From Nannocystis pusilla (lineage in GTDB: Bacteria; Myxococcota_A; Polyangia; Nannocystales; Nannocystaceae): a stretch of 64,000 bases of DNA. The notes under the pieces are model-generated. The model saw only the letters and a program-made list of their open reading frames with translations, was not told the origin of the DNA and searched no databases. A program made the position numbers and the translations under genes. Shown in pieces: positions 7,173 through 28,109 of this stretch. The stretch lies in the NCBI RefSeq assembly GCF_051105105.1, contig NZ_CP185339.1; one strand, 5' to 3'. Every line of letters begins with the position of its first letter. Position 1 is the stretch's first letter.

Positions 7173-7224
7173 CGCAGGCCCTCGCGCGCACCCGGCCTCA
7201 TCCTCGGCCCCCGCCCGCGCAGCG

Positions 7225-7307
7225 GCATGCCCGAAGGGACATGCCCGATTCGACATGTCCTTCTCGCCATGTCCATCACGACATGCCGCGAAGGACATGT
7301 CCAGTAG
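7225..7307. repeat. tandem array of six units of about 14 bp, each GACATGYCC plus a 4-7 nt spacer
   Basis: gcatgcccgaagg / gacatgcccgattc / gacatgtccttctcgc / catgtccatcac / gacatgccgcgaag / gacatgtccagtag. It lies in the intergenic region after the UDPGP gene, about 460 bp upstream of pgi. Confidence 0.8.
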
Positions 7308-12304: not shown

Positions 12305-12389
12305 GGGCGCATCATACCGACCGGCAAGATTCCCGCGCTCGCCCGCCCGGCGCGCTGCGCCCGAACCGACGACGCGCGCGAGGATCTGC

Positions 12390-13415
12390 CTACAGCCCCA
12401 CGGGCCCGGCGAACGCGGCCAGCAGCTCGGCGGCCGCGTGATCGGGGCTGAGCCGCCCGGCGCGGACGGCCGCCTCGAGCGCGGGCCGGCGCGCGAGCAC
12501 CTCGGGATCGGCGGCGAAGCGGCGCATCAGCTCGGCCTCGATCGCCCGCCACAACCAGTACACGTGCTGGGCCTCGCGCTGGGCCTGCCAGGCGGGGCCG
12601 GCCTGGAGGGCCTCGCGGTGACGCTCGACGGTCTGCCACAGCGCCGCAAGGCCGGCGCCGGTGACGGAAGAAGTGGTGACGACCGGGACCGACCAGCCGG
12701 CGTGCTTGGGCCGGATGAGGCGCATCGCCAGGGCGTACTCGGCGCGGGCGCGCTCGGCGGCGGCGAGGTTGTCACCGTCGGCCTTGGTGATGGCGAGGAT
12801 GTCGGCGAGCTCGAGGATCCCGCGTTTGATGCCCTGCAGCTCGTCGCCGGCGCCGGCGAGCATGAGGACGAGGAAGCAGTCGACGAGCTGCGCGACCATC
12901 ACCTCCGACTGGCCGACGCCGACGGTCTCGACCAGGACGACGTCGAAGCCCGCGGCCTCGCACAGCAGCACGGTCTCGCGGGTATGACGAGCGACGCCGC
13001 CGAGCTCGCCGAGCGACGGCGACGGGCGGATGAAGGCGCGCGGCTCACGGGCCAGCTCCTGCATGCGGGTCTTGTCGCCGAGGATGCTGCCGCCGCTGCG
13101 CACCGAGCTCGGATCGACCGCGAGCACGGCGACGCGGCGACCGAGGTCTCGCACCAGATGGAGGCCGAGCGCCTCGATCAGGGTGCTCTTGCCGGCCCCC
13201 GGGCTGCCGGTGATGCCGACGCGCAGCGCCCCGCCCGCCCGCGAATCGCCCGTCTGCAGCGCCGCCACCAGCTCGCGCGCCAGCGCCTGATCGTCGGCAC
13301 GCTGGCTCTCGACCAGGGTGATCGCTCGCGCCAGCACCGCGCGATCGCCGGCCTGCACCCCCGCTGCGTACGCCTCGACGCTGAGCCGCCCTCGTGCCAT
13401 CGCCGGGCGCACCAT
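12390..13415 (-). CDS. meaB: methylmalonyl-CoA mutase-associated GTPase MeaB/ArgK
   Basis: P-loop GITGSPGAGKST plus ...VLVETVGVGQSE... and ...ILAITKADGDN..., the G-protein metallochaperone motifs. Confidence 0.8.
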   Translation of the reverse strand: MVRPAMARGRLSVEAYAAGVQAGDRAVLARAITLVESQRADDQALARELVAALQTGDSRAGGALRVGITGSPGAGKSTLIEALGLHLVRDLGRRVAVLAVDPSSVRSGGSILGDKTRMQELAREPRAFIRPSPSLGELGGVARHTRETVLLCEAAGFDVVLVETVGVGQSEVMVAQLVDCFLVLMLAGAGDELQGIKRGILELADILAITKADGDNLAAAERARAEYALAMRLIRPKHAGWSVPVVTTSSVTGAGLAALWQTVERHREALQAGPAWQAQREAQHVYWLWRAIEAELMRRFAADPEVLARRPALEAAVRAGRLSPDHAAAELLAAFAGPVGL

Positions 13416-13590
13416 ACCCGCTGGCCGGGCCGCGCTACAAGCAGCTCACCGGATGTCCCGGGGGACCTGTCCCGAAGTTCAGACGTGCGTCACACCGCGT
13501 CTGCCGCGCCCGCAGCGGGCTCGACAGGAGCCGCCGAGACAGCGCGACTGCCGACGCGACGCGAAAGACTCGTGCGGGCCGTGGCCGGCG

Positions 13591-13818
13591 TCAGGGCGCC
13601 GCGGACGCCTGGGCGTGGGCACCACGGCTGGTCGGGCGGCTGTAGAACAGGGTGATGGTCAGGCAGTGGAACTCGCTGTCGGAGCTCTGGGTGACCACCT
13701 TGTCGACGATCTCGACGCCGGGATTGGCCTCGAGCCACTCGTTGATGCGGTCGCTGATCTGCTCGCGCTCCCAAGCCTTGGTCGCCGAGAACACCTTGAC
13801 TCCCGTAAATGCCACCAT
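13591..13818 (-). CDS. small hypothetical protein (about 75 aa)
   Basis: The ORF starts MVAFTGVKVFSATKAWEREQISDRINEWLEANPGVEIVDKVVTQSSDSEFHCLTITLFY; the sequence looks protein-like. The ATG was chosen over the longer ORF call in the track. Confidence 0.4.
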   Translation of the reverse strand: MVAFTGVKVFSATKAWEREQISDRINEWLEANPGVEIVDKVVTQSSDSEFHCLTITLFYSRPTSRGAHAQASAAP

Positions 13819-13894
13819 GTGCCTCTCCCTCTTGCAGCGCCCGGGGGGTTGTTTCGCGGCCAACCCCTCATGGGTCGCCGTCGCCGGAGGCGCC

Positions 13895-14060
13895 GCCCAG
13901 ATCTGGCCCTGAGGTATGGCAGAGGCAACGGGGCGAATAAAGTTAAAAAGTGCGCACGGGCCCGCGGGCCGCAGGTCACGGCCTGTTAGAGCCTTTTTTG
14001 TAATTGAGCATGCAATTTGATCCGTCGATATTGTGACGAACTCGCCTATATTGCCGCGCC
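13895..14060 (+). promoter_or_regulatory. AT-rich promoter region upstream of prmA, with a TATATT -10-like hexamer 12 nt before the ATG
   Basis: Locally AT-rich in a GC-rich background (...ttttttgtaattgagcatgcaatttgatccgtcgatattgtgacgaactcgcctatattgccgcgccATG). There is also a GGCCCGCGGGCC palindrome at 13926-13937. Confidence 0.3.
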
Positions 14061-15030
14061 ATGCGTGAGACAGCAGAGACGACCGCCGAACCGTGGGCGA
14101 CGCTTTTGGTCCAGCTCCGCGGCCGGTCCGACGACGACGGCGAGGGCCTCGACCTCGGCGAGCTGACCGAGGCGTCGGAGCGGCTCGAGGCGCTGGCGAC
14201 GCTGATCGCCGAGGACCCGCGCGCCGCGGGCGTGGAGACGCGGGACACGTCGACCCTCGGCAGTCGGTGCGAGATCCCCGAGCTTACGATTTACACCACC
14301 CCCGACGGCCTCGAAGGCCTCATCGCCGAGGTCGAGCGGCTCGGCGCCGACCTGCACCTGCCGCTGCGGCTGACCCCGGCGGTGCGCACCGACGACGACT
14401 GGCGCGACACGTGGAAGCAGTTCTACGCGCCGCTGGTGTTCTCGGCCGCGACGACGACGCTGCTGGTGCGACCGAGCTGGATCGATCGCCGGCCCGGCGA
14501 CCCGGAGCTCGAGCTGGTCCTCGACCCCGGCCGCGCCTTCGGCACCGGCCAGCACGAGACCACGCGGCTGTGCCTGGAGCTGCTGGTCGCCCTCGCCGAG
14601 GCCGGCGCGCGCCCCGACCGCGTGCTCGACCTCGGCTGCGGCTCCGGCATCCTGGCCCTGGGGGCGGCGCGGCTGTTCCCGCAGGCCGCGGTGGTCGCCG
14701 CCGACAACGACCCCGACGCCGCCGACACCACCGCCGAGAACGCCGCCGCCAACGAGCTCGAGGACCGGCTCGAAGATCCGGGCCGCGACCGTCTTGGAAC
14801 TTTCGGACAGCTTCGATCTGATCCTCGCCAACATCCGCCCCGGCGTGTTGATCCCGATCGCCGGCGACCTCGCGCGCCGGCTCGCCCCCGGCGGCGCCGT
14901 CGTCCTCAGCGGCGTGCTCGGCGAGGAGGCCGAGGCCGTGCTCGCCGCCTACACCGCGGCCGGGCTGGCGCTGGCCGACCGCCGCGACCTCGCCGAGTGG
15001 TGCGCGCTGGTCCTGCGAGCGGCCGGATGA
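14061..15030 (+). CDS. prmA: ribosomal protein L11 methyltransferase; apparent single-base frameshift near 14770-14776
   Basis: FGTGQHETTRLCLELL and LDLGCGSGILALGAA are PrmA SAM-binding motifs. The C-terminus (ELSDSFDLILANI...) is in the +1 frame. The string ctcgaAgatccgg looks like ctcgagatccgg with one extra A. Confidence 0.8.
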
Positions 15031-15716
15031 GCACGCGGGTGTTCGTGGGCGCGCCGGCCGACCCGGCGCGCGTCGGCCTGGACGCCGCCGAGTCGCACTA
15101 CCTCCGCCGGGTCCGCCGGGTCGGCGACGGCGCGCGCATCGAGGCGATCGACGACCACGGCGCGCTGTGGCTGGCCGAGGTCGTCGGCGGCGACGCGCGC
15201 GGCACCACCGTGAAGTTGCTCGAGCAACGAACGGTGCCGGCCCCCGCGCGCGAGGTCGTCGTCCTGCTCGGCATGCCGGAGCCGGCCACCGTGCTCGACG
15301 TGCTGCCGGCGCTGTGCGAGATCGGCGTCGCCGAGGTCGTGCTGGTCCGCTGCGCGCGCAGCCAGGGCGCGGCGCCCGGCGGCGAACGGATCGCGCGGGT
15401 GCTGCGAGCGGCGCAGCGGCAGTGCGGCAGGCCCCGCGCGCCCGCGATCTCGGGACCCGTCGATCTCCGCGAGGCCACGCACCGGCGCACCGACCTCCCC
15501 GGCTTGTTCGCGTGGGAGGAGCTGCGCGCGACATCGAGCGACACGCCGGCGGTCGTCGCGGGTGCTCGTGTGTGCGTGGGGCCCGAAGGTGGGTTTACCC
15601 CCGAGGAGGCGGCGCTGCTGCGCGCCGCGGGCTTCCGCGCGCTCGGCCTCGGGCCCTACACGCTGCGCACCGAGACGGCGGCGCTGGTCGCTGTCGCTCG
15701 CGTGATGTTCGCCTGA
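15027..15716 (+). CDS. rsmE: 16S rRNA (uracil1498-N3)-methyltransferase RsmE
   Basis: Ends in ...VCVGPEGGFTPEEAALLRAAGFRALGLGPYTLRTETAALVAVA, the RsmE C-terminal SPOUT-knot motif. Its ATG overlaps the prmA stop (ATGA). Confidence 0.8.
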   Translation: MSTRVFVGAPADPARVGLDAAESHYLRRVRRVGDGARIEAIDDHGALWLAEVVGGDARGTTVKLLEQRTVPAPAREVVVLLGMPEPATVLDVLPALCEIGVAEVVLVRCARSQGAAPGGERIARVLRAAQRQCGRPRAPAISGPVDLREATHRRTDLPGLFAWEELRATSSDTPAVVAGARVCVGPEGGFTPEEAALLRAAGFRALGLGPYTLRTETAALVAVARVMFA

Positions 15717-15770
15717 GCGCCGGCGGGGACCCGCCGCGCCGCGCGGGGACGGACCGGGAGGCCCGGGGCC

Positions 15771-16370
15771 GTGTTATGGTGCGCGCCGATGGCGTTTTGG
15801 TCCCGCAAGGAGCGACCCGCACCGTGTCCGAGCTGCGACGCGGCGCTGGACATCGGCCTCGTCAAAGACGGGCGACCGACGTGCCCGGCGTGCGGGCAAG
15901 CGCTGGTGCCGGTGCGCGTCGCCGGCTTCTGGCGGCGCCTCGCCGCCGCGGTGGTCGACGCCGCGATCCTGCTCGTCACCGCCGGCCCGCTGCACCTCGG
16001 CTTGCAGCGCGTGATCGGCGAGGCGAGCCCGGTGCGCGGCGCCTTCTCGTGGGCCGGTCTGCTCCAGCTCCTGACCGTCGACCCGCTCGAGATCCTGGTG
16101 TGGCTGGCGCCGCTCCTGGTGATGGTAGCGATCTACTTCGTGCTCTTCATCGCCCTGTCCGGAAGGACACCCGGGCAGAAGCTCACCGGGATCCGCGTGG
16201 TCCACCGCGCCGGCGGCAAGGTCGGTCCGGTGCGCGCGACGGTGCGTTTCGCGGGCACCGCCGTCGGCCTGGTGCCCGGCGGCCTCGGCTCGCTGTGGAT
16301 GGCTTTCGACCGCGAGAAGCGGGCCTTCCACGACTACCTGACAGGCACCTACGTCGTGAGGGAACAGTGA
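15771..16370 (+). CDS. RDD family membrane protein with an N-terminal CxxC..CxxC zinc ribbon
   Basis: CPSCDAAL...CPACGQ, then the RDD-type membrane core (WRRLAAAVVDAAILL...RTPGQKLTGIRVV). Confidence 0.6.
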   Translation: MLWCAPMAFWSRKERPAPCPSCDAALDIGLVKDGRPTCPACGQALVPVRVAGFWRRLAAAVVDAAILLVTAGPLHLGLQRVIGEASPVRGAFSWAGLLQLLTVDPLEILVWLAPLLVMVAIYFVLFIALSGRTPGQKLTGIRVVHRAGGKVGPVRATVRFAGTAVGLVPGGLGSLWMAFDREKRAFHDYLTGTYVVREQ

Positions 16371-19300
16371 GCCTCCTCCTGCGCCACCTCGAAGCCAACG
16401 GCCCGCTGTCGCGCGCCGATCTCGAGGCCGCGACCCGGCGGCAGCAGCTGGCCGGCGGCAGCCTCGACACCGCGATCCTCGAGCTCGGGCTGATGACCCC
16501 GCTGCAGCTCGACGCCCTGCTGCAGAGCGCCTGCGGCCTCCCCGGCGCGCCGGTGCGGCTGCTCGAGCGCGGGCCGACCCGTCCCTGGGAACATGTCCCG
16601 AGAGACCTGGTCGACATCGGCTGGGCCATGCCGCTCGCGCAGGAGGACGGCCGGCTGATCGTCGCCGTCCACCCCGACCTGCCCGACGCCAAGCTCGGCC
16701 AGCTCTACCGCATGGTCCGCGGCTTCTACCCGGTCGTCGCGCCCGAGTGCTGCCTGGCCAAGATCGCCGTCGAGCGCACCGGCTCGATCCTCGCCCCGCG
16801 CTACGCGCTGATCCTGCTCGACTACCTCGAGGCGCTGCGCACCGCCTCGATCACCATCAGCCTGGTGCCGGGCTCCGCCGAGGCGCGGGCGGGCGAGCCG
16901 CCTGTCCCTGCGGACAGGCAGCCGGCCGAGGCACCTGTCGCAACGGACAGGCAGCCGACGGCGGCCCGCGCCGAGGCAGCTGTCCCTGCGGACAGGCAGA
17001 CGGCCGACGCGCCCGACGCGGCGCCTGTCCCTGCGGACAGGCAGACGGCCGACGCGCCCGACGCGGCGCCTGTCCCCGCGGACAGGCAGCCTGCCGACGC
17101 CCGAGGCGCCGACACGACTGTCCCTGCGGACAGGTCGCACGCCGAGGCGCGACCGGAGCCGTCCGGCGCCGACACCCCGGTCGACGCTCGCCTCGCCGAC
17201 GCGCCCGCCGGCGATCGCCAGGCAGGCGACCCCGACGCGAGCCTGGAGCCCGGCGCCCCGGCCCGCCGCACCGACGCGCCCCCCGCCGCCCACGGGCTGG
17301 AGGTCGAGGCCGGAGGCCCTGCCCTCGGTTCGTCGCGACCCGGCGGGTCGGTGATCGGCCAGGTCGCCGCTGGTCGCGCGGATGCTCCTGTCCCTGCGGA
17401 CAGGTCCGCCGCCGACGCGAAGGTCGACGGGGCCGAGGCCTCGACTGCGGCCGGCGCCGTGCAGGCGGACGCCGCGGACGACGGGCGGACCGCCGCTGCC
17501 CCTGCCACCGGGGACGGGACGACCGCGGGCGCGCGGCCGGCGTCGCTGGCCGACGCGCTGCAGGCCGACGTACCTGTCCCATCGGACAGGCAGATGGCCG
17601 GGCCGCGCCCGGCGGCGATGTCCGGGCCCAACACCGCGGCGCGCGCGACGGGTTCGCCGTCCGGCGCCTCGCCGTTGTCGGAGGCCGGCTCGCCGAGGAC
17701 CGGGCCCGAGGACGCGGCCGCGACACCGCCTGCCCCCGGGGACAGGCCGAACGAGTCGCCCGCACCTGCCCTCAAGGACAGCCGCGACGAGGCCATCGAC
17801 GCGGACCGGGCCCGCCCGGCGAACGGGCCCGCGCTCGCCGCGGGTTCGTCCCCCGCGGCGCCGACTCCCGCCGGTTCGACGGCGTCCGACTCGGACGCCC
17901 ACGCGCCTCTCGCCGCCGACGAGCTCGCCGCGGACCGAGCGGCCGCCAGCAGCCCCGCGCCGTCGGCGTCGGCCCCGGCCGATGCAACTGTCCCTGAGGA
18001 CAGCAAAGGCGAAGCATCGCCGTCGCCGAGCGTCGCCGGCGCGTCCGCACCGGTCCCCGCGGGCAGCTCCGCTTCCAACGCCTCGACCAGGTCATTCCAG
18101 CTCGACACCCCGAGCCTCGCCGCTGCGGGGCGCCGGACCGAGCCCGCCCCCGCGCCTGCCGCCGCGGCGAGCCGCCAGACGGCTGCCTACGACTCCCGCG
18201 CGCCCGAGCCCGACTCCGCTGCCGCCGCCAACCGGCCCTCGACGCGGCCCTCGCCCGTCCCCGTCGCCCCGGACGCCCCGCTCATCGACCCGGGCGGCTT
18301 CGAGGACGAGAACGCCTCGCTGGCGGCGATGGCCATCGCCCCCGACACGCCGCTCATCATCCTGCCGCCGGCGACCACGCCGCGACCGGTGACCCCGCCC
18401 CTCGGGGTGCCGATCTACTCGGACACCTCGTCCGGCAATTGGGACAGGCGCACCCTCGTCGGCATCCCCGTCGGCGTGGCGCCCTCCCCCGCCCCCGCGG
18501 CCGACAAGCCCGCGGCCGCGCACGGCCCGAGCAACGGCGTCGCTCGCCCCACGACCGCGCCGGGCACACCTGTCCCTTCGGCCAGCCCCGTCGAGCCCGC
18601 CCCGAGCCCGCCTGTCCCTTCGACCAGCTCCCTGGAGGCCGCGCCGAGCGCCGCCGAAGCCGGGTCCGACGAGGATCTGGTCGAGTCGTCGACGCGCAAG
18701 CCGCCGGCCCTGCCGCAGCCGATGGTCATGACGCTGGCGCAGCGCCTCGACGCCGCCCGCGCCACGCTGGCCACCGCGCGCGAGCGCGACCGGATCACCG
18801 AGGCCCTGGTGCGAGCCGCCAGCCTGATCGCCCCGCGCGTGGCCCTGTTCGGGGTCAAGCGCGAGGGTCTGCGCGTCCTGGCCGCGCCCGGCAGCGCGCT
18901 GCGGATGTCCGAGGGCCTCGTCATCCCGCTGCCCGAGGGCGGCCTCCTCGATCGCGCGGTGTCGGGCCAGGGTCCGCTGCACCTCCTGATCGAGCCGAGC
19001 CTGTCGTTCGCCGTCGGCCAGCCGCTGGGGATCCCCTGCATCTTCGAGCCCGTGCTCGCTGGCGGACGCACCGTGCTGATGCTCTACCTCGACCGCTCCG
19101 GCGTCGCCTTCGATCCGCGCGAGCGGACCGTCCTGCGCGAGCTGTGCGACACGGCCCGGCAGAGCCTCGAGGCGCTGCTGCGGCTGCTCGGGTGGGTGGT
19201 GCCCGGCGGCACGCCCGGGGCCGGCCCGGCCGACCGTACACGCCCGTCGATCCGGCCCGCGACCCCGATCGTCACCGTCGACGAGGCCGACCCGCCGGGG

Positions 19301-21637
19301 ACGACACCACCTGTCTCTGCGGACAGCTCCGAGCTCGAGCCCGAGCCGCCGGCCGCCGAGGCCGAGGCCGAATCCGACCCGCCCCAGCCGCCGCCGACCG
19401 CGAGCGGCGCGGCGAGTGAACCCGGCTTCGGAGACAACAACAGCGTCGCCAGCCGGCTGCGCAGCCGCGGCAACCGCGGGCGCGCCGTCATCACCCTGAA
19501 GAACCCGATCCGGCGCGACGATCCGGCGACCGTGACGCCGCTGCCGGTCCGCGCCGAGAGCTCCGCGCTCGTGCGGGCTCAGACGCTCGCCGACGAGCCG
19601 CCGCCCCCGCCCGACGAGCCGGAGTACGAGGACCTCACCGACGACCCCGAGGAGCTCGACAGTCCGCCGCCCCGCCGCGACGGCCCCGGCCTCGGCCTCG
19701 CGCCGGTCCCCGTGCCCCTCGGCCCCGAGAACGGCCAGGACAGCCCGCTCGTGGCCCGCTTCGCCGCGATGTTCACCAAGCCGCCGGTGCCGGCGGTGAC
19801 GATCGACCTGTCCGATCGGCCCAATACCTTCGGACATGCGCGATCGGACAGCCCCGAGGCGCCGCCGGCGAGCCCGCAGCCCGAGATGCCGGGCTGGATC
19901 GCCACCGCCGAGCCGTCGGGCATCGAGGACCCGCTGCCGGTGGCGGCGGCGCTGCGGTCGGCCGCAACCGCCGCCGAAGCCCGCGTCGACCACGATCCGG
20001 CGGCGACGCTGCCGGGCGCGCCGCGGGTCGTGCTCGAGGAGACCACGCGGTCATCCACATCCACGCGCGACGAGTTCGACGAGTGGCCGCGCGCCGCCTC
20101 CGACACCCCGACCATCCTCGACCTCTCGCCTCCGCCGACCCACGAGCCGCTGCTGGTCGAGACCCGCGCCGCGCCCGACGCCAAGACTGTCCTCGACCTC
20201 CCGCGGGTCGACTCCCCGGTCCCGCCCGAGACCCTGATCCCCAACCTCGTCGCCCCGCCCGGCATGCCCGGCGCGGGTCGCCGTCGCCGCGCCAACGAAC
20301 CGGCCGAGGACGAGCCGGTGCTGGTGATCCCGAAGACGCTGCGGCGCTCGGGCGGCCTCACCGCCACGCCGCACCCGATGGCCCGTCGCAGCGACCCCGA
20401 CGAGCTCGAAGGCGGCCCGACGCTGTCGATGCCGACCACTCTGATCGGCCCGCGCAGCGGCCGGCGCCGCGGCAAGCACGACCCGCGCCCCGACTCCTCG
20501 TCCAGCGCCCTGACCATGCCCCGGCTGGTGCGCGAGGCCGAGGCCGAGGCCGAGGAGGTTGCGGCCCAGTCGACCGCGGGAGGGGCCGTTCCTTCGGAAC
20601 ATGCCCCCGAGGACATGCCCCGGAAGACCGGTCCCCAAGCGCAGGTCGACGCGAGCGCGCCGGCCGGCGCCGCCGAGGCGAGCGGGTCCGTCGCGGCCTC
20701 GCCGGCCGACGCTCGCCCGGCCGCGGTCGAGCAGTCGACCGAGGAGCCGGCCGCGACCGCCGAGGTCGCCTCCGGCGCGGCGCTCGACGACCGCGAGATC
20801 GACGCGGTGATCGAGGACTTCTTGCAGAACCCGGCCGAGTGGACCAGCGTGTCGCGGCTGCGCGCGCTCGACGAGCGCGGCCTGGCCCGCCTGGCGGCGC
20901 GCTTTCCCGGCCCCATCGACCTCGCCAACGCGACCAACTTCCCGCCGCCGAGCGCTCACGGGCCGCTGCTGCGCGCCTGCGTCGAACTCGGCCACGCGGT
21001 CAGCCCGCACGTGCTCGCCCTGTTCGCCAGCGCACGGCCGCAGATCCGCTTCTACGCCGCGTTCCTGTTCCAGGAGCTGCGCGACCCGAAGTGCCTGCGG
21101 CCGCTCGGTGAGCTGGCGTTCGACTCCGACCCCGACGTGCGGCTGATCGCCACCCGCGTGCTCGAGTCCTACAGCCGCGTGCCCGACTTCGCGACGGTGG
21201 CCGCGGAGATCCGCGGCGAGCTCGAGAGCCCGGACCGCGACCGCCAGCTCCTCGCCGTCGAGGCCGCCGGCACCCTGCGCGACACCCTCGCGGTGCCGCG
21301 TCTCATCGACCTGCTGGCGGTCCGCGACAAGCACGTCCGCGAGGCGGCGCTCGAGGCCCTGTGCTCGATCACCGCCAAGCACCACGGCTACCGCGCCCAG
21401 CGCTGGCGGGCGTGGTACGCCGAGCACGGCCAGGAGCCGCGCATCGAGTGGGTCATCGACGGCCTGCGCCACCGCGACGAGGCCGTGCGCCGCTGGGCCG
21501 CCGACGAGCTGGCGCGGATCACCGGTCAGCGGATCCCGTTCCCGGCCGAGGGCGACCGCCGCAGCCGCGATCTGGCCCTGCGCGCCTGGCAGGCCTGGTG
21601 GGACAGCAACCGCGAGGACTTCACCGCCGGTAGCTGA
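16367..21637 (+). CDS. large multidomain protein of about 1750 aa: N-terminal MshEN (T2SS-E N-terminal-like) domain, long Pro/Ala/Asp-rich disordered repeats, a central GAF-like region and C-terminal HEAT/PBS-lyase repeats
   Basis: GTG at 16367 overlaps the RDD stop. The N-terminus LLRHLEANGPLSRADLEAATRRQQLAGGSLDTAILELGLMTPLQLDALL resembles the GspE-N/MshEN fold. The C-terminus (...DSDPDVRLIATRVLE...DRDRQLLAVEAAGTLRD...DKHVREAALEAL...DEAVRRWAADELARI) is HEAT-repeat-like. The 2156-aa ORF in the track is a GC-driven 5' over-extension through prmA, rsmE and the RDD gene. Confidence 0.7.
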   Translation: MSLLLRHLEANGPLSRADLEAATRRQQLAGGSLDTAILELGLMTPLQLDALLQSACGLPGAPVRLLERGPTRPWEHVPRDLVDIGWAMPLAQEDGRLIVAVHPDLPDAKLGQLYRMVRGFYPVVAPECCLAKIAVERTGSILAPRYALILLDYLEALRTASITISLVPGSAEARAGEPPVPADRQPAEAPVATDRQPTAARAEAAVPADRQTADAPDAAPVPADRQTADAPDAAPVPADRQPADARGADTTVPADRSHAEARPEPSGADTPVDARLADAPAGDRQAGDPDASLEPGAPARRTDAPPAAHGLEVEAGGPALGSSRPGGSVIGQVAAGRADAPVPADRSAADAKVDGAEASTAAGAVQADAADDGRTAAAPATGDGTTAGARPASLADALQADVPVPSDRQMAGPRPAAMSGPNTAARATGSPSGASPLSEAGSPRTGPEDAAATPPAPGDRPNESPAPALKDSRDEAIDADRARPANGPALAAGSSPAAPTPAGSTASDSDAHAPLAADELAADRAAASSPAPSASAPADATVPEDSKGEASPSPSVAGASAPVPAGSSASNASTRSFQLDTPSLAAAGRRTEPAPAPAAAASRQTAAYDSRAPEPDSAAAANRPSTRPSPVPVAPDAPLIDPGGFEDENASLAAMAIAPDTPLIILPPATTPRPVTPPLGVPIYSDTSSGNWDRRTLVGIPVGVAPSPAPAADKPAAAHGPSNGVARPTTAPGTPVPSASPVEPAPSPPVPSTSSLEAAPSAAEAGSDEDLVESSTRKPPALPQPMVMTLAQRLDAARATLATARERDRITEALVRAASLIAPRVALFGVKREGLRVLAAPGSALRMSEGLVIPLPEGGLLDRAVSGQGPLHLLIEPSLSFAVGQPLGIPCIFEPVLAGGRTVLMLYLDRSGVAFDPRERTVLRELCDTARQSLEALLRLLGWVVPGGTPGAGPADRTRPSIRPATPIVTVDEADPPGTTPPVSADSSELEPEPPAAEAEAESDPPQPPPTASGAASEPGFGDNNSVASRLRSRGNRGRAVITLKNPIRRDDPATVTPLPVRAESSALVRAQTLADEPPPPPDEPEYEDLTDDPEELDSPPPRRDGPGLGLAPVPVPLGPENGQDSPLVARFAAMFTKPPVPAVTIDLSDRPNTFGHARSDSPEAPPASPQPEMPGWIATAEPSGIEDPLPVAAALRSAATAAEARVDHDPAATLPGAPRVVLEETTRSSTSTRDEFDEWPRAASDTPTILDLSPPPTHEPLLVETRAAPDAKTVLDLPRVDSPVPPETLIPNLVAPPGMPGAGRRRRANEPAEDEPVLVIPKTLRRSGGLTATPHPMARRSDPDELEGGPTLSMPTTLIGPRSGRRRGKHDPRPDSSSSALTMPRLVREAEAEAEEVAAQSTAGGAVPSEHAPEDMPRKTGPQAQVDASAPAGAAEASGSVAASPADARPAAVEQSTEEPAATAEVASGAALDDREIDAVIEDFLQNPAEWTSVSRLRALDERGLARLAARFPGPIDLANATNFPPPSAHGPLLRACVELGHAVSPHVLALFASARPQIRFYAAFLFQELRDPKCLRPLGELAFDSDPDVRLIATRVLESYSRVPDFATVAAEIRGELESPDRDRQLLAVEAAGTLRDTLAVPRLIDLLAVRDKHVREAALEALCSITAKHHGYRAQRWRAWYAEHGQEPRIEWVIDGLRHRDEAVRRWAADELARITGQRIPFPAEGDRRSRDLALRAWQAWWDSNREDFTAGS
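16980..17069 (+). repeat. exact 45-bp tandem duplication (x2, plus a degenerate third copy) inside the giant gene; each unit carries the inverted repeat CTGTCC-CTGC-GGACAG
   Basis: ctgtccctgcggacaggcagacggccgacgcgcccgacgcggcgc occurs twice back to back, encoding PVPADRQTADAPDAA. Further CTGTCC-N4-GGACAG copies lie near 16902, 16935, 17396, 17583, 17995, 19308 and elsewhere. Confidence 0.85.
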
Positions 21638-21649
21638 GCGGCTGTCACT

Positions 21650-21707
21650 TCGGGCATGTCCTGAAAGACATGCCTGAATCGGCATGCTCATTCGGGCATG
21701 TCCTCTG
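21650..21707. repeat. tandem array of four units of about 14 bp of the same family
   Basis: cgggcatgtcctgaaa / gacatgcctgaatcg / gcatgctcattcgg / gcatgtcctctgg. It begins immediately after the giant gene's stop (21637). Confidence 0.8.
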
Positions 21708-22033
21708 GACCAGGCACCGCGGCGACCCGAGCGCGCGCGAGCGCGTGCTACCCGACACGGCCGCAGGCCCGGCCGTCCGGGCGCGGCCTTCGCCCGTGCC
21801 CATGACGGTTCCGGCCGCGACACCGCACCTGCGCCGCCCGAGCTCGCAAGGCCACGGCGCAGGCATGACCGTTCGGACATGCCCCATCGACCTCCCGCTC
21901 GCCCGCCGCAGCCATGACTGTTCGGACACGGCCTTTCGACCATCTCCCTTGTTCAACGCCGGCGACGGGCCCTCGCTGACCAGCGCGGAGGACATGGCCG
22001 ATGCGCCACGCCCTCGGAGCGCCTTCTCGCGGC

Positions 22034-22870
22034 TCAGAGGTCGTCGACGACCTTCACCTTGCCGGTCTTGGCCGGAGCGATCCGGCCCATCCGCACCGGC
22101 TCGGGCGGCGGCGGGGGCTCGACGACGGCGATGTCGCCCATCAGCGGCTGCGATTTGGGCGGCTCGACCACCTTCACCGGCGCCTGGCCCATCTGCGGCG
22201 GCGGCGGCGGGGCGAAGCCGGGCTGCGGATCGCACGGCTCCTTCACCTCCGGCATCGCCTCGCCCATCTTCGCGTGCTCGACCGGCGCCACCTTGCCCAT
22301 CAGCTCCTCGGTCGGCGGCGGCGGCGGCGGCTCGACGGCGATCGGCGCGGCGCCCATCACCTCGGGGACGGGCGGGACCGGCGGCGGCTGGGGCGGACGG
22401 ATTCGGGCCCCGAGGTCGACGACGTTCTTGCAGACCTCGTGACCCACCGGGAAGTGCATGGTGGTGAAGGGCCCGGTCTGGACCTCGCAACCGCCCTCGG
22501 GCGAGGGCTTGGCGTCGCGGGCCATCGCCTCGATGGCGATGTCGCCGATGTCCTGGATCGGCGGGCCGTCGCCGTGCGGGGCGCAGGCGGCCAGGAGCAT
22601 CGCCGCGAAGGCGGTGCGCACCGGGCGGAGGCGAGACAGCGGGACGGTGTCGCGAAACGCGATCTGGCCGTCTTCCTGGTTCGAGTAGCGGACGCACAGG
22701 TGCTCGCCCTTGTGCGCCTGCAGGAGATCGGTGGCCGCCTGCCGCGTCATCGCCGAGAGGTTGTGCACGTGTTTGGCGCAGACATCGCAGAAGCGGCGCT
22801 CCGCATCGCCGTGCATGGCGTCCCACGACTCGTGGCAGGGGCTCTTGATCTCGACGTTGCGACTGTGCAT
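22034..22870 (-). CDS. hypothetical protein with an N-terminal Cys/His zinc-binding motif and a Pro-rich MG-repeat C-terminus
   Basis: CHESWDAMHGDAERRFCDVCAKHVH, followed by repeated ...PPPP..MG.. units resembling a TonB-like spacer. Confidence 0.5.
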   Translation of the reverse strand: MHSRNVEIKSPCHESWDAMHGDAERRFCDVCAKHVHNLSAMTRQAATDLLQAHKGEHLCVRYSNQEDGQIAFRDTVPLSRLRPVRTAFAAMLLAACAPHGDGPPIQDIGDIAIEAMARDAKPSPEGGCEVQTGPFTTMHFPVGHEVCKNVVDLGARIRPPQPPPVPPVPEVMGAAPIAVEPPPPPPTEELMGKVAPVEHAKMGEAMPEVKEPCDPQPGFAPPPPPQMGQAPVKVVEPPKSQPLMGDIAVVEPPPPPEPVRMGRIAPAKTGKVKVVDDL

Positions 22871-22980
22871 GGCGGCGGGACAACGCGCGGGGTCGGGGCC
22901 GGGTCTCGTGCGAGAGCTCGGCGCAGCGCGTCGTGAGGACCAGCGTATCCCCCGTGCGAGAAGCTTGGTATAGGGCCGGC

Positions 22981-23976
22981 GTGCCCCATGTCCCTGCCCT
23001 CCTCGCGCGACTGCGCGACGAGCCGCGCTACCTCGCCGCGCTGGCAGCGCTGCTGGTCGACGAGGTCCTCGCCGCGCCGGCGCGCCGCTTCATCGATCCC
23101 GTAAGGCTGACCCCGCTGATCGTCACCGGCCTGCAAGCCGTCGCCGCCGCGCCCGGCCACGCGGCGTGGCTCGAGCAGCGCCTCCGCGACGCGCTGACAC
23201 GGATCCGTCCGCGACAGGGCACGCTGCGCGCGCGCTTGCCCGGCGATCTGCTGCCGCTGCTGCGCACCGTGGTCCGCCGGCCCTACACGCCGAGCCGCGC
23301 GCTCGTGCGAGCGGTCGTCGATCAGGCGACCGTGCGCGACCTGTCGCGCACGATCCTCCACACCACCCTGCTCGACTTCGCCAAGAAGGTCGGCTCGATC
23401 TTGCCGGACACCAGCAAGATCCCGGGCGCCGGCGTCACCTCGAAGCTGTTCGGCGTCGCCAAGGGCGTGGCCTCCGTGGTCGGGCTCGACGCTTCGGTCG
23501 AGGACCGCGTGCGCGGCTTCGTCGACGGGGCTGTCGGTCGCGTGATCGACATGATCGTCGACCGCGTCAGCGACCCCAAGCACGCCGGCGAGGGCGCGGC
23601 CTTCCGCACCGACGTGCTCGCCTCGCTGCTCGACCTGCCGGAGTCCGCCGTCCACGCCGAGCTCGTCAAGCTCGACCCGGCCGTGGTCGCGGCCGACGTC
23701 CAGGCCGCGCTGGTCGCCGTCGCCGCCTGGGACCGCCTACCGGCCGAGGTCGAGGCGGTGCTCACGGAGGCGGTCGCCGGCCTCGGCGACGTCACGGTCG
23801 GCGAGCTGCTGGCCGGATCGGGCGAGATCGAGGCGTGGCGCGGCGCGGTCGAGGCCGAGCTGCGCTACCACCTCGGCCACGGCCTCGCCGGCCCGCGCTT
23901 CGCCGCCTGGCTCGAGCACCTGGTCGCCGGGACATTGCCTGAAGAGCAGGTCCCTGGGGCCAGCAGCGCCGAGTGA
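22981..23976 (+). CDS. hypothetical protein
   Basis: Intact 330-aa ORF with protein-like composition and no recognisable motif. The GTG start is inferred. Confidence 0.45.
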   Translation: MPHVPALLARLRDEPRYLAALAALLVDEVLAAPARRFIDPVRLTPLIVTGLQAVAAAPGHAAWLEQRLRDALTRIRPRQGTLRARLPGDLLPLLRTVVRRPYTPSRALVRAVVDQATVRDLSRTILHTTLLDFAKKVGSILPDTSKIPGAGVTSKLFGVAKGVASVVGLDASVEDRVRGFVDGAVGRVIDMIVDRVSDPKHAGEGAAFRTDVLASLLDLPESAVHAELVKLDPAVVAADVQAALVAVAAWDRLPAEVEAVLTEAVAGLGDVTVGELLAGSGEIEAWRGAVEAELRYHLGHGLAGPRFAAWLEHLVAGTLPEEQVPGASSAE

Positions 23977-23983
23977 CCCGACA

Positions 23984-24015
23984 CCTGCGCTTCAGGACAT
24001 GCCCTGAAGCGCAGG
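23984..24015. terminator. perfect 13-bp-stem hairpin (cctgcgcttcagg-acatgc-cctgaagcgcagg) between convergent genes; candidate bidirectional intrinsic terminator lacking a U-tract
   Basis: It starts 8 nt after the stop of the 22981-23976 gene and ends 110 nt before the 3' end of the 24126 gene on the other strand. The loop and flanks contain the GGACATGCC motif. Confidence 0.45.
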
Positions 24016-24125
24016 TTCGCCTCCCAGCGCTCGGACCGCGACGCGCGGACGCGGACGGCCGCTCCCGCGAGCGCACGCACCCGGCAGCGCCCCGTCAGGC
24101 GCGGCGAACCTCGCGTCCGACCGGT

Positions 24126-26525
24126 TCACACCCCTGCCGCCTGCGCGACCTCGCCGAGCGGGCGGGCGCGGCCGATCGCCGGGTCGGCGGCGGCCAGATC
24201 CTCGTAGGCCTCCGGGTTGGCCTGCTTGAGCGCCCCGCCGGGGGCTTCGGCCGTGCCGATGAGCTCGCGGATGCCTCGCACCGACCCGTAGTAGTTGCCG
24301 TTGTTGTGGTCCTCGTCGCTGTTGCAGCGGCGGATCAGCGAGCGGGACAGCCGCGGCAGCTGCAGCATGTCGAGCGCCATCTCCCACAGGCCGTCGACGA
24401 AGTTCTGGTCGGCCGGGAACTCGAGCAGCCCGGCGAGCAACAGCAGCAGCCCGGCGCGCTGGCCGAGCGGCGTGTCGAGCGGCGGCGCGGCGGCGAGGTA
24501 ACCGAGGTCGATCGCCCGCCACCACGCCTCGGCGGCGACCAGCAGGCGCTTGAACTCCTGCGCGCTGTGGCTGAGGTGGCTGTGGAACAGCACGTCGGCA
24601 GTCAGCGCGTCGCCGGCCGGGTCGCGGACATAGCGGACCACCGCGGGCAAGCGGCCGAGATCCCCGCGCGGCCCCTTGCCGGCCGGCACGTCGCGCGGCG
24701 GCTCGGCGCCGCTGAAGAAGCCGCCAGCCCGGAACGCGTAGAGGATCTCGGCCTGGCCGGGCAAGCTGTCCCAAAGTTCAGAGTACTGCGTGACCCGGTT
24801 GAGGCTGCCGGCGGCCCAGCCGAGCCCGCGCGCCGCCTCGCCGCTGATCTGCGACGGCGACGCCCCCGGATCGCGCGGCACCGCCGAGTCCTTGAGGCTT
24901 TCGGCGATCTCGACCAGGCGGAAGTCGAGGAATCCGTCGTAGTAGTCGGCCTTGCCGTCGCGATTGATGTCCTGGTAGCGCGCCACCACCAGCGGATGGG
25001 CCGGGCCGATGAACTGCACGAAGTCGGGCGTGCGGCTCTGGCGGTGGTGCCACTGGGCCTTGCGGATCCGCCGGTCGATCGCCGCGAAGTCCTCCTCCTC
25101 GGCGAGGCCACGCAGGATCGCCACGAAGCAGTCGATGCCCTCCGAGGCCACCACCTTGTCGCCCTCGCCGGTGCGGAAGTAGGTCGAGTCCCAGCTCGAG
25201 AAGATGTCGGCGTCGGGGAACATGCGGGCGATGGCGAAGCGCGTGGTCAGCCCGGCGCACTGGCAGTTCATCATCAGCTTGTAGCCGACCTGCTGAGTCT
25301 GGATCGCCGAGGCGCGCATGTCGTAGGCGCCGAGGTTGGCGTGGCGGCTGACGAGCAGGCCGGTGAAGAACTCCTGCGACATCTCGAAGTTCTCGTCGCG
25401 CGGCGAGGCCGAGCGGGCGAACAGCAAGAACTCGCGCCCGCCCTTGCCGACGAACGGCGCCTGCAGCACCACGTAGCCCTCGCCCCACGGGTTCGGCGGC
25501 TTCGGCGTGCCCTCGGGCGCGACGATCTTGGTGAAGCCGTACTTCGTCTGCAGGAGCTCGACCTCGCCGGGGAAGAACTCGGACGCCGAGGCCAGGGCGA
25601 ACCGCCACGGCCCGGTCAGCGCCGCGTACGGCGGGGCCTGCCGCGACAGCGAGCGCAGCAGCGCCCGCGCGCGCGCCTGCTGCTCGGGTCGCAGGGCCGG
25701 GCCGCGCAGCGACAGCAACGAGATGGCGTGCGCGCGCAGCTCGCTGCGTCCGCCGGGCCCGGCCTCCTCGTCGATCAGCCGGAAGATGCGCCCGGCGGCC
25801 GCATCGGCGGCGGCGCGAAACTGAGGGTCCTTGAGCACCGTGGCGACCACGTGCGACAGCACCGTCAGCGCCGCCGAGCGCAGCTGCACCGCGTCGTCGA
25901 CCGCCCCGTGCGGGCCCGCGGGCGCCGCCGCAGTCAGCACCGCCTCGACCTGCTGCAGCAGCGCCCCCGCCTGCGCGGGCGTCAGCCGCTCGGTCCGCAG
26001 CGGCTCGTCGGGGAAGAACGCGCTCGGCGGGAACAGGCACTCGAAGCTCGACGTCCGCCGCGCGGAGATCCAGCGCGCCGCGGCGACGAACACCGGCAGC
26101 GACGACATGTCCCTCGGGGCAGGTCCAGCCGCGTCGCCCGCCAGCTCGCCGGACGACAGCAGGAACAGCGGAGCCGCGCCGTGGATGCCGGCGGTCAGGT
26201 CGAGCGCCGCCGCCTGCGGCTCCGGCGTGTCCCGAAGACCCTGTCCCGAGAGACCGGCGAGGCGCTGGCGGACCGCGCGGCGGCCGGGGAAGTCGAGCAG
26301 GATCTTGTGCCCGACCGACGACCGCAGCAGCGCCTTGTCGGCCGCCGAGGGCTCGGCGACGAGGGCGACGTGGTAGTCGCGCTCGCCGGCGAGGTGGATC
26401 TGCACGCCCGGGCCGCTGCGCGCGCGCTCGAAGCTGCGGGTGGCCGTGCTACCCGACTTGACCAGGACGGCGGCGAAACGCGTGGACGCGGCGCCACGCC
26501 CGATCCGAATCTCGATCTCCTTCAT
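24126..26525 (-). CDS. large hypothetical protein (about 800 aa)
   Basis: Intact ORF starting MKEIEIRIGRG. It has a complex, non-repetitive composition and no motif I can name. Confidence 0.55.
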   Translation of the reverse strand: MKEIEIRIGRGAASTRFAAVLVKSGSTATRSFERARSGPGVQIHLAGERDYHVALVAEPSAADKALLRSSVGHKILLDFPGRRAVRQRLAGLSGQGLRDTPEPQAAALDLTAGIHGAAPLFLLSSGELAGDAAGPAPRDMSSLPVFVAAARWISARRTSSFECLFPPSAFFPDEPLRTERLTPAQAGALLQQVEAVLTAAAPAGPHGAVDDAVQLRSAALTVLSHVVATVLKDPQFRAAADAAAGRIFRLIDEEAGPGGRSELRAHAISLLSLRGPALRPEQQARARALLRSLSRQAPPYAALTGPWRFALASASEFFPGEVELLQTKYGFTKIVAPEGTPKPPNPWGEGYVVLQAPFVGKGGREFLLFARSASPRDENFEMSQEFFTGLLVSRHANLGAYDMRASAIQTQQVGYKLMMNCQCAGLTTRFAIARMFPDADIFSSWDSTYFRTGEGDKVVASEGIDCFVAILRGLAEEEDFAAIDRRIRKAQWHHRQSRTPDFVQFIGPAHPLVVARYQDINRDGKADYYDGFLDFRLVEIAESLKDSAVPRDPGASPSQISGEAARGLGWAAGSLNRVTQYSELWDSLPGQAEILYAFRAGGFFSGAEPPRDVPAGKGPRGDLGRLPAVVRYVRDPAGDALTADVLFHSHLSHSAQEFKRLLVAAEAWWRAIDLGYLAAAPPLDTPLGQRAGLLLLLAGLLEFPADQNFVDGLWEMALDMLQLPRLSRSLIRRCNSDEDHNNGNYYGSVRGIRELIGTAEAPGGALKQANPEAYEDLAAADPAIGRARPLGEVAQAAGV

Positions 26526-26689
26526 CGCACCCTCCGAAGGCGCGAGCGTAACACGCTGCCGCAACGTCACCGGACGCGCGCTCCCACGCGCGCGGGCGCG
26601 GCGGCGCCGGCGAGACACGACATGTCCCTCGGGACAGCCATGGAGCTCGGTGAACCGTGGTCACGCGCCGCGGTTCGATGTTCTGCGCC

Positions 26690-28109
26690 CTACTTCAGCG
26701 CGCCGCGGTGCACGTGCGGCTCGGGTGGCACGGGAGGCATCCCCGTCTGCGGAGCGACGCGGTATTCGTTGAGGCGGTACTGAATCTTGCGCGGCGAGAT
26801 CCCGAGGATCTTCGCGGCCTTGCTCGTGCTGCCGCCGACGTGCTCGAGCGTCCGCAGGATCGCGTAGCGCTCGATCTCTCGCAGCGACGCGCCCGGGATC
26901 ACGGGCGCCGAGTCGTCGCCGCGCATCTTCGACATCAGCTCGCGCGGCAGGTCGCGCGGCTCGATCTCCGCCCCGCGGGCGAGCACCACCGCCCGCTCGA
27001 CGCTGTTCTCGAGCTGACGGATGTTGCCCGGCCAGTCGCACCCGAGCAGCACCCCGAGCGCTCGCTCGCTGAAGCCGACCATCGGTCGGTGCGCCTGGGC
27101 GGCGAACTGCCGCAGGAAGTGCATCGCCAGCAGCGGGATGTCGTCCCGGCGCTCGCGCAGCGAAGGCATGCGCAGGCTGACCACGTTGAGGCGGTAGTAC
27201 AGGTCCTCGCGCAGCTTGCTGCCCCTGGCCGCGCCGAGGTCCTGGCTGGTCGCCGCGAGCACGCGGACGTCGGCCTGCAGCGGCTCGCTGTCGCCGACGC
27301 GGCAGAACGTCCGGTCTTGCAGGAACCGCAGCAGCGCCGCCTGCACGCCCGCGGGCAGCTCGTCGACGTCGGCGAGGAAGAGCGTGCCGCCGTCGGCCTC
27401 GACGAGCCGGCCCTCGCGCAGCACCGCCTCGCCGTCGCGCACCCCGAACAGCTCGCGGGCGCACGCCTCGTCGGTGAAGCCGCTGCACTGCAGGCTGACG
27501 AACGGGCCGCGGCGGCCGCTCCACTGGTGGATCAGGCGCGCCAGATGTTGCTTGCCGGTGCCGCGCTCGCCGGTGACGAGCACCGACACCGGCGAGTCGG
27601 CGACCTGGCGCGCGAGGCCGAGGAGGTCGCGGAACACCTTCGACTGGCCGATGATGCCGGCGCGCTGGTCGGCGCGTTGACTCTCGAGCGCCGAGCGGAG
27701 GTGCCGGGCCTCGCGTTGCAGCGCCCGGTGTCGCAGGACCCGCTGCAGCACGATGAGCAGCTGCGGCAGGTCGACGGGCTTGCTGAGGTAATCGTCGGCG
27801 CCGAGGTGGAGCGCCTCGACGGCGCCCTCGACCGAGCCGAAGGCAGTCATCACAACGACCGCGACGTTCAGGGTAGAGTTCACGAAGTTTGGATATGAGC
27901 TCGAGGCCGTTGAGGCCGGGCATCTTGACGTCGGTGATGACGACATCCGGCTCCCACTGGTCGATGCGTCCGAGCGCCTTGTATCCGTCGGCGGCGGACT
28001 GGACCTCATAACCTTCCTCGCGCAGCAACTCGCTGAGTGCAGAGCGTGCGCTTGACTCGTCATCGACCACCAAAATTCGGGTCGGCCTGGTCTCTTCAAA
28101 TTTCGTCAT
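26690..28109 (-). CDS. sigma-54-dependent response regulator (NtrC family: REC, AAA+, HTH); frame broken by a GACGTTC heptamer at 27863-27869
   Basis: N-terminal REC domain (ILVVDDESS...VITDVKMPGLNGLELISKLRELYP), then in another frame AVVVMTAFGS...GERGTGKQ...GAFTGA-like ESELFGxxxGAFTGA region...and a C-terminal HTH. Deleting the heptamer gives a continuous ...ELYPAVVVMTAFGS... Confidence 0.8.

Follow-up and report, generated by a model that had tools for sequence, protein, structure and literature searches.

The host gene and its palindromes

The window analysed here is a stretch of 64,000 nucleotides (nt) of Nannocystis pusilla DNA (contig NZ_CP185339.1), in which one large gene, called the host gene below, carries many copies of the interrupted palindrome CTGTCC-N4-GGACAG within its reading frame. 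These in-gene palindromes are constrained at the nucleotide level. The host gene occupies 16367..21637 on the plus strand and encodes a protein of 1756 amino acids (16367-21634), for which a 100% identical N. pusilla protein was found. The protein consists of an N-terminal domain (called GspE-N-like in orthologue records), a long linker rich in Pro, Ala, Asp and Ser, a conserved domain in the middle, another linker, and, at the C-terminus, HEAT repeats, which were the sole domain recognised by Pfam on the long open reading frame (HEAT_2 at residues 2019-2068). That long frame, 15167-21637, from whose start an earlier note on this DNA had begun the gene, is over-extended because the coding frame, as judged by the GC content of third codon positions (GC3), begins only near 16400. 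The likely start is the GTG at 16367, which is preceded by a GAGGG ribosome-binding site. The 5' 1.2 kb of the long frame (15167-16366) was not coding in that frame and showed the GC3 signal in another one. The GTG overlaps the stop codon of the upstream RDD-family gene (15789-16370) by 4 nt, which suggests translational coupling of the two genes.

Eight exact copies of CTGTCC-N4-GGACAG were located in the host gene, all of them in 16902-18003, where dinucleotide shuffles expect 0.01. With up to three mismatches to the 18-mer CCTGTCCCTGCGGACAGG, 12 distinct sites were found in the gene, as compared with 0.07 expected for the whole window. The core TGTCC-N4-GGACA (10 bases, at most one mismatch) was present at 14 in-gene sites, which start at 16903, 16936, 16981, 17026, 17071, 17119, 17389, 17575, 17731, 17767, 17989, 18571, 19312, and 20602, in good agreement with the ten or more copies and close variants that had been reported for the disordered region. 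In 14/14 of them, the first T of the core is at codon position 3 (xxT GTC CNN NNG GAC Axx). The host gene is thus a hotspot of the motif, with 14 sites in 5.3 kb, 12 of them in the 1.8-kb first linker, while the remaining coding DNA of the window contains 14 sites in total, an estimated 0.3 per kb.

All of the in-gene copies described here lie on the plus strand. The first palindrome, CTGTCCCTGCGGACAG at 16902..16917, encodes PVPADRQ in frame and is followed at 16935..16950 by the variant CTGTCGCAACGGACAG (PVATDRQ), which has one arm mismatch; this arm is intact in the orthologues of Nannocystis sp. ILAH1 (locus L004) and of a second N. pusilla strain (L005). An exact tandem duplication of 2 x 45 bp occupies 16980..17069, as had been described earlier, with the unit 16980-17024 copied as 17025-17069 and CTGTCCCTGCGGACAG opening each unit (16980-16995 and 17025-17040). 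The palindrome CTGTCCCCGCGGACAG (17070..17085) lies within a third, diverged 45-bp unit, and CTGTCCCTGCGGACAG recurs at 17118..17133 (TVPADRS) and at 17388..17403 (PVPADRS), the latter being a position at which the motif or a near-motif was seen in 6/6 aligned species with differing spacers and flanks. The palindrome CTGTCCCATCGGACAG (17574..17589, PVPSDRQ) occupies a position common to most orthologues. Two one-mismatch copies at 17730..17781, CTGCCCCCGGGGACAG (17730-17745) and CTGCCCTCAAGGACAG (17766-17781), and the palindrome CTGTCCCTGAGGACAG (17988..18003, TVPEDSK) follow. Farther downstream, a 42-bp tandem repeat of 2.4 copies (18555..18655) contains the degenerate copies CTGTCCCTTCGGCCAG (18570-18585) and CTGTCCCTTCGACCAG (18612-18627), the second linker contains the one-mismatch copy CTGTCTCTGCGGACAG (19311..19326, PVSADSS), and the CATG-type copy ATGCCCCCGAGGACATGCCC (20601..20620, HAPEDMP) appears as ATGTCC-N4-GGACATGTCC in orthologues. 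A tandem-repeat finder reported a period of 45 bp with 3.9 copies, as well as motif-bearing 33-bp and 42-bp repeats.

Constraint on the nucleic acid

Synonymous codons of the host gene were swapped among positions, with the protein and the codon usage held exactly. Under this permutation, the mean number of exact palindromes was 0.02 (maximum 1) versus 8 observed, and that of one-mismatch sites was 0.76 (maximum 3) versus 14 observed. An origin of the palindromes by chance or from codon usage was excluded by the permutation together with the dinucleotide shuffles. The constraint was also visible in individual codons. The codon preceding V-x-x-D ended in T in 11/19 cases (58%; background 4.0%), and the codon following it started with A in 10/19 cases (background 14.5%). 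The Arg after the motif Asp is encoded by AGG, while AGG and AGA together account for 2.9% of the Arg codons elsewhere in the host gene. Synonymous sites around the palindromes are therefore constrained.

Orthologous loci were compared from N. punicea (L001), N. bainbridge (L002), N. radixulma (L003), the two close relatives L004 and L005, and a metagenomic relative (L007); these loci are not independent samples. Each of the six Nannocystis-lineage orthologues had 11-17 one-mismatch sites, and in those for which the codon phase was printed, the phase was that of the window, save for one one-mismatch site in L007. The peptides encoded by the motif varied (VPADRQ, VLKDRQ, VLEDST, VLADSP, VPEDIS, VPEDMS, VPTDSS, and VPGDRP), and the residues following Asp (R, S, M, I, N, and T) had as their sole common trait a codon beginning with A. 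In the nucleotide alignment with the distant loci L001-L003, the arms were 69-78% identical, the spacers 53-68%, and the flanks 38-52%. TGTCC-N4-GGACA was thus held in the same phase while the peptides changed, which is the reverse of a peptide conserved without its palindrome. The number of palindromes in the array of 45-bp units varied among strains, being 6 in the window, 5 in L004, and 9 in L005.

A selected peptide unit, P-V-P-x-D-R/S, whose nucleotide identity would merely reflect recent duplication, is in keeping with the partly recent tandem duplication of the array, including the exact 45-bp pair, and with the invariance of V and D in the encoded peptide. Nevertheless, this explanation is very improbable, as it is contradicted by both the orthologue comparison and the V-x-x-D codon pattern: the DNA arms are the same in species whose peptides differ, the residues after Asp agree only in their A-starting codon, and the preceding codon ends in T whatever the amino acid. 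In addition, the pattern was destroyed by synonymous permutation, and the same motif occurs with the same spacing in DNA that is mostly non-coding. The conserved unit is the nucleic acid rather than the peptide, as the earlier note had suggested, since the arms remain constant in phase while the spacer, the flanks, and the residues drift. All three checks put forward there, on orthologues, on copy number among strains, and on synonymous sites, bore this suggestion out.

Outside this lineage, neither the orthologue of Paraliomyxa miuraensis (L006), a protein of 1127 amino acids with much shorter linkers, nor its 23-kb neighbourhood contained a copy of the motif, and no alternative dominant palindrome was evident in these 23 kb. 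This locus is only partly syntenic, with an ATP synthase operon upstream in place of PGI/MatE.

A palindrome family of Nannocystis

The motif is not confined to the host gene, since the rest of the window contains another 9 exact copies. In the window, exact TGTCC-Nk-GGACA occurred 17 times with k=4 and never with any other k in the range 0-12. A further 793 kb of Nannocystis DNA contained 227 exact cores with k=4, and 0-3 with other k. The core of the family is TGTCC-N4-GGACA, with a spacer that is strictly 4 nt long and free in sequence. In its full form the palindrome reads GGACATGTCC-N4-GGACATGTCC, and such units frequently form chains at a period of 14 bp. When one mismatch was allowed in the window (background about 2), the counts were 45 for TGTCC-N4-GGACA, 26 for GGACA-N0-TGTCC, 30 for the direct pair GGACA-N9-GGACA, 12 for GGACA-N14-TGTCC, and 11 for TGTCC-N18-GGACA. 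The peaks at N0, N4, N9, N14, and N18 therefore represent chains of GGACATGTCC plus 4 nt at the 14-bp period. The in-gene copies share their half-site with the intergenic GGACATGTCC copies, as had been noticed earlier, and both belong to one family in the 14-bp register. In the in-gene version, CCTGTCC...GGACAGG, the outer bases contribute to codons for Pro and Arg/Ser in place of His and Met.

An array of five units at the 14-bp period (21652..21717) begins 15 nt past the stop codon of the host gene. Its first two units form a predicted hairpin with a 12-bp stem (-19.3 kcal/mol). Three strains (window, L004, and L005) retain the hairpin after the host-gene stop, each with a loop of its own, and the remainder of the spacer diverges among them. 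A further family member, TGACC-GTTC-GGACATGCCC (21866..21884), is found in this convergent intergenic region as well. The window's longest array (7223..7302) is located downstream of a UDP-glucose pyrophosphorylase-like (UDPGP-like) gene and has six units, each a 10-mer resembling GGACATGTCC plus 4 nt.

Extrapolated from 58.7 kb, a 12-Mb genome would contain about 1,900 exact cores and about 6,000 with one mismatch, corresponding to about one exact core per 6 kb and about one core per 2 kb with one mismatch. The lineage distribution was determined by a scan of one genome per species, 185,579 species in all, with the perfect 24-mer GGACATGTCC-N4-GGACATGTCC as the query, for which about 1 match in total is expected by chance according to our own estimate. 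The scan returned 103 loci. Nannocystis species or a Nannocystaceae metagenome-assembled genome (MAG) accounted for 98 of these, including N. pusilla, N. bainbridge, N. punicea, N. radixulma, N. exedens, Nannocystis sp. RBIL2, and MAGs, with 6-18 perfect 24-mers per Nannocystis genome; 2 loci belonged to one Myxococcales MAG, and 3 were chance-level singletons in unrelated taxa. The palindrome family is genus-specific and very abundant.

At intergenic sites that were not picked by the query (L008-L110), the outer arm was usually asymmetric, with GGGCATGTCC on one side and GGACATGTCC on the other, and outer position 3 was a G.T/A.C pair in 49/87 such sites. The commonest natural form is therefore not the perfect palindrome used for the database scan. 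Flank profiles showed nothing conserved past the 10-mers and no asymmetric GTAG-like foot, by which a longer element around the core resembling a miniature inverted-repeat transposable element was ruled out. Rfam at gathering thresholds gave no match anywhere in the window, and no description of the Nannocystis palindrome family was found in the searchable literature.

Position relative to genes

The position of the family was analysed in 849 kb comprising the window and the Nannocystis-lineage loci, with the giant host gene excluded. Among the 408 sites that were not query-picked, 65% were in intergenic DNA, which makes up 19% of the DNA as called. Convergent intergenic regions had a density of 7.9 sites per kb, tandem ones 1.6, and divergent ones 0.9, and 92/138 convergent regions had at least one site. 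Most copies of the family were located 10-50 nt past stop codons. The nearest stop was at a median distance of 47 nt (mode 10-20 nt) and the nearest start at one of 334 nt, and in tandem regions the upstream stop was the nearer one for 65/90 non-query-picked sites (p=3e-5). Perfect 24-mers typically began 2-30 nt past a stop codon. In the window itself, which was not chosen by the motif, sites were present in 3/5 convergent, 7/29 tandem, and 0/6 divergent regions, small numbers that agree with the 849-kb sample, and 15/46 gene ends had a site within 150 nt. The family is associated with the 3' ends of genes.

Intragenic regulator-binding sites, one of the mechanisms put forward in the earlier note, are disfavoured because the promoter-bearing divergent regions are the poorest in sites. 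The same holds for the operator of a classical regulator: the fixed N4 spacer fits, but besides the poverty of the divergent regions, the sites in tandem regions lie near the upstream stop. In-frame insertion of mobile elements and recombination hotspots, the other two mechanisms of that note, are possible. MrpC/CRP-type and NifA-type sites were rejected for their spacing, since TGTC-N6-GACA here does not match their N8 or N10 registers. In positions 7001-27000 of the window (20 kb), a scan for canonical terminators with a hairpin and a U-tract found 3 versus 3.0 expected, which is the chance level; the palindrome family therefore does not simply consist of ordinary terminators. Sigma-70-like promoters were also at chance level in the same 72% GC interval (1 versus 0.3 expected).

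In three places (14-mers at 34281, 44486, and 58858), the motif overlaps a putative start codon, where ATG TCC nnn nGG ACA reads M-S-x-R-T; the copy at 44486 is on the minus strand and has an AAGGAG ribosome-binding site. Those at 34281 and 58858 lie at tandem gene junctions, where the start codon of the second gene would be sequestered in a hairpin at the 3' end of the first.

Hairpin in RNA or site in double-stranded DNA

Pairing between the two arms was examined through their variants. Compensated double changes numbered 44 at N4 versus 14 at control spacers, for example 10 versus 0 for TGTCT..AGACA and 9 versus 0.7 for GGTCC..GGACC. On the strand transcribed from the upstream gene, single changes were G.U-compatible in 21 cases versus C.A in 9 (p=0.04), and the outer position was G..T in 26 cases versus A..C in 14 (p=0.08). 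GNRA/UNCG loops were found 17 times in sense versus 5 times in antisense orientation (p=0.017). The in-gene copies had predicted folding energies of -8.6 to -17.2 kcal/mol, and those of full intergenic forms were -19 to -26 kcal/mol. Flank covariation at offsets 6-7 appeared only when the query-selected perfect sites were included and was not relied on.

We favour the interpretation, at a probability of roughly 0.6, that the in-gene palindromes are in-frame members of a REP-like or terminator-like family of 3'-end RNA hairpins of the Nannocystis lineage. The family would act at the RNA level, as terminators without a U-tract and/or as barriers to 3' exonucleases, and the force that keeps the intergenic copies would also keep the intragenic ones. 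That force could be a drive by copying or repair, or else selection on the hairpin, which may involve a factor recognising the symmetric stem. The disordered linkers of this and other large genes retain copies in frame, and tandem duplication in frame has multiplied them there. The intragenic copies could fold in the mRNA as hairpins of 6-10 bp where ribosomes leave them uncovered, and in the 5.3-kb message they might, more speculatively, block exonucleases or cause pausing or attenuation coupled to translation.

The serious rival of RNA 3'-end hairpins is a double-stranded site for an abundant homodimeric protein that reads TGTCC-N4-GGACA, the in-gene copies being intragenic binding sites. 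Such a protein might be nucleoid-associated, a partner of the gyrase or IHF type as at the BIMEs of E. coli, or a transcription roadblock, and abutting sites in the 14-bp register would permit cooperative arrays. The strict 4-bp spacer of free sequence between invariant 5-bp arms is operator-like for a dimer, abutting units give the N0/N4/N9/N14/N18 peaks, and a symmetric reader would explain why the arms are themselves palindromic. Gyrase-binding BIMEs are likewise enriched between convergent genes. The excess of compensated double variants, on the other hand, is unexpected if each half-site must match one consensus, and the strand-oriented G.U and tetraloop biases indicate RNA. Furthermore, the outer half-sites of the perfect 24-mer have no partners and are sensible only as an extension of the stem, and the low density in promoter-bearing divergent regions does not suit a classical regulator. 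On balance, a dimer site is unlikely, and the hairpins are preferred.

Several observations weigh against the hairpins or soften the evidence for them. The flanks of the sites that were not query-picked showed no covariation beyond base composition at offsets 1-7, in line with a dimer site; only the 5-bp apical stem is demonstrably constrained, so that a double-stranded dimer site explains that part just as well. The strand biases come from small tests (p = 0.02-0.08), and at one-mismatch sites in other coding regions the strand bias was reversed, with C.A in 24 cases versus G.U in 7, which is probably a codon effect. No U-tract was detected 3' of the hairpins, the T fraction being 0.16 on either side; when sites were oriented by their upstream gene, T made up 0.16 of the downstream bases and A 0.18 of the upstream ones. 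A plain terminator requires no fixed stem sequence, no strict 4-nt loop, and no self-palindromic arms. That the hairpins terminate transcription or stabilise RNA is read from their position only. As for the samples, the gene calls were our own, based on GC3 and covering 81% of the sequence, and are not an annotation; 102 of the 510 sites were query-picked (408 were not), and neighbours within arrays inflate the count for convergent regions. The apparent conservation of the arms among orthologues may also be inflated, because MAFFT may anchor on the repeated motif.

In-frame copies in other coding regions

The exact motif in coding DNA was strongly uneven in phase, with the T at codon position 3 in 26 sites, at position 2 in 19, and at position 1 in only 1. 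The near-absent phase would encode Cys-Pro-x-Gly-His/Gln, while the phase of the host gene reads x-V-(P/L)-x-D-(R/S/M/I), which a linker rich in Pro, Ala, Asp and Ser tolerates. In-frame clusters were also present in a spermidine-synthase-like membrane protein (L029, 5397-8000; 8 in-frame sites in SPVPGDTF/SPGPADMS repeats), in two large hypothetical proteins (L041, 3-3692 and 3689-7999; 6 and 9 sites in H-A-x-K-D-S/M/T repeats), and in a Ser/Thr kinase-WD40 protein (L053, 3-2972; 5 in-frame sites). All of these clusters are in low-complexity linkers, and they came to light only because their loci also hold a perfect 24-mer. The fraction of disorder-promoting residues flanking the coding sites was 0.59, compared with 0.55 at random coding positions (p=0.006). 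The periods of motif-bearing repeats were 45 and 42 bp in the window and 27, 42, 45, 54, 57, and 120 bp in relatives. These are all multiples of 3 and unrelated to 14 bp, so the motif spread within genes by ordinary in-frame tandem duplication and not by import of intergenic arrays.

Single copies were observed in genes upstream of the host gene as well. An exact copy at window position 16156, within the RDD-family gene, is in the other permissive phase (L-S-G-R-T-P) and is found at the same position (9790) in L001-L005, with the spacer GGAA or GGGA. A one-mismatch copy, TGGCC-TTCG-GGACA (H-G-L-R-D-M), is located in the conserved glucose-6-phosphate isomerase gene in three strains (window 8649, L004 2299, and L005 2226).

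The coding copies bear on the possibility that a copying or repair drive maintains the family and that the in-gene copies are neutral passengers where protein constraint is weakest. Mobilisation of the REP/REPIN style by a RAYT-like transposase, a transformation bias like that of uptake sequences, and motif-directed mismatch repair, once proposed for HIP1, are possible drives. A drive would account for copies that lie in coding as well as non-coding DNA, that in genes occupy only the phases with harmless peptides, and that are concentrated in the low-complexity linkers of several unrelated large proteins. The thousands of genus-specific copies and the strain-to-strain variation in copy number point the same way, and a drive is also compatible with a 3'-end function of the intergenic copies. 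Other observations speak against a drive, which is improbable. Close orthologues showed no presence/absence polymorphism at clean hairpin-sized boundaries, their differences being whole tandem units, and none of the 25 genes flanked by hairpins on both sides looked transposase-like when read by eye, which is not a genome scan. At non-query-picked sites in the 793 kb, the exact paired core (125) outnumbered the exact 10-mer (55), which argues against an uptake-sequence monomer. The sites also persist at orthologous positions across the genus, and comparable persistence of HIP1 has been taken as evidence of selection over replenishment (PMC5861425).

A broader form of the favoured hairpin interpretation is doubtful. 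A hairpin constraint across the genus, inside the disordered linkers of many large genes, would dictate the linker peptide (x-V-P/L-x-D-R/S/M/I) in place of protein function, and the same invariant stem of two-fold symmetry would mark most operon ends. Such a pattern would imply a dedicated trans-acting reader, that is, a sequence-specific 3'-end or termination system, or else a new kind of drive, and the intragenic copies would be translation-coupled internal attenuators.

In the host gene, codon preference gives way to selection or drive acting on a DNA or RNA motif, which thereby determines amino-acid sequence in proteins, a clear natural example of this effect; the motif recurs in several genes and is conserved across the genus. 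GGACATGTCC-N4-GGACATGTCC also provides a sequence handle on transcription-unit ends in a 12-13-Mb, 72% GC myxobacterial genome, which could be used for the annotation of operon ends in Nannocystis and for terminator design in this natural-product-rich genus. It raises the question of what recognises a stem with two-fold symmetry whose loop is strictly 4 nt long. Caution is needed with "peptide repeats" in Nannocystis proteins, which may mislead interpretation.

Comparison with known systems

The family was compared with REP/BIME elements, dispersed terminator-like repeats, Rickettsia palindromic elements (RPE), HIP1, and uptake sequences, none of which matches it on all defining features. REP/BIME/REPIN elements of enterobacteria, pseudomonads, and others are short, genus-specific hairpin palindromes present in hundreds to thousands of copies after genes or between convergent genes. 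They tend to form clusters of alternating orientation, their stem is conserved and their loop variable, and they possess an asymmetric GTAG-like foot and a cognate RAYT (Y1/HUH transposase), whose gene usually has the repeats on its flanks. The Nannocystis family is likewise short, palindromic, hairpin-forming, and dispersed (17 exact and 45 one-mismatch cores in 64 kb), and as a whole it is extragenic, lying 3' of genes or between convergent genes. In contrast to REPs, 14 copies lie in frame inside the open reading frame of the host gene and are conserved there, with in-frame clusters in other genes too. The unit also differs, being a 10-bp perfect palindrome in itself, with a strict 4-nt loop, a 14-bp array period, and no GTAG-like foot, its sole asymmetry being the frequent G/A difference at outer position 3.

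With intrinsic (Rho-independent) terminators, the family shares a stable GC-rich stem-loop shortly past the stop codon (mode 10-20 nt; predicted -19 to -26 kcal/mol) but not the U-tract 3' of the stem. A conserved terminator motif of mycobacteria represents a recurring U-tract-less ("I-shaped") type of terminator in high-GC bacteria. SPRITE of S. pneumoniae is listed as a dispersed terminator-like repeat (PMC10969869). The resemblance to both lies in a GC-rich stem-loop of recurring sequence just past stop codons, whereas the Nannocystis stem is invariant across the genus and has copies inside open reading frames.

RPE are palindromic repeats found in frame in unrelated protein-coding genes, to which they add a tolerated peptide (PMC10969869). 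The Nannocystis palindromes are also in frame within unrelated protein-coding genes. However, RPE are clear insertions of 100-150 bp with a conserved peptide, while the Nannocystis unit is 14-16 nt long and its peptide varies; orthologue alignments of the host gene showed no insertion-type gaps. HIP1 (GCGATCGC) of cyanobacteria is a hyper-abundant palindrome of unsettled function that is present inside open reading frames as well as in the DNA separating them and is conserved beyond codon needs (PMC5861425, PMC4390886). It has in common with the Nannocystis motif that it is lineage-specific, over-represented, and conserved between genomes. HIP1 differs in being a contiguous 8-mer tied to orphan methyltransferases and free of positional bias at the gene level, whereas the Nannocystis motif is interrupted (N4) and strongly biased to the 3' side.

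Uptake signal sequences of Pasteurellaceae and DNA uptake sequences of Neisseriaceae are asymmetric 9-12-mers that are abundant singly, in thousands of copies, and whose inverted pairs double as terminator hairpins. Their coding copies are restricted to tolerated frames and weakly constrained protein segments. The Nannocystis motif is similar to them in its thousands of copies and in the limitation of its coding copies to tolerated frames and weakly constrained segments. It is unlike them in that the exact paired core is commoner than the exact 10-mer (125 versus 55), which argues against a 10-mer monomer as the unit of the family.

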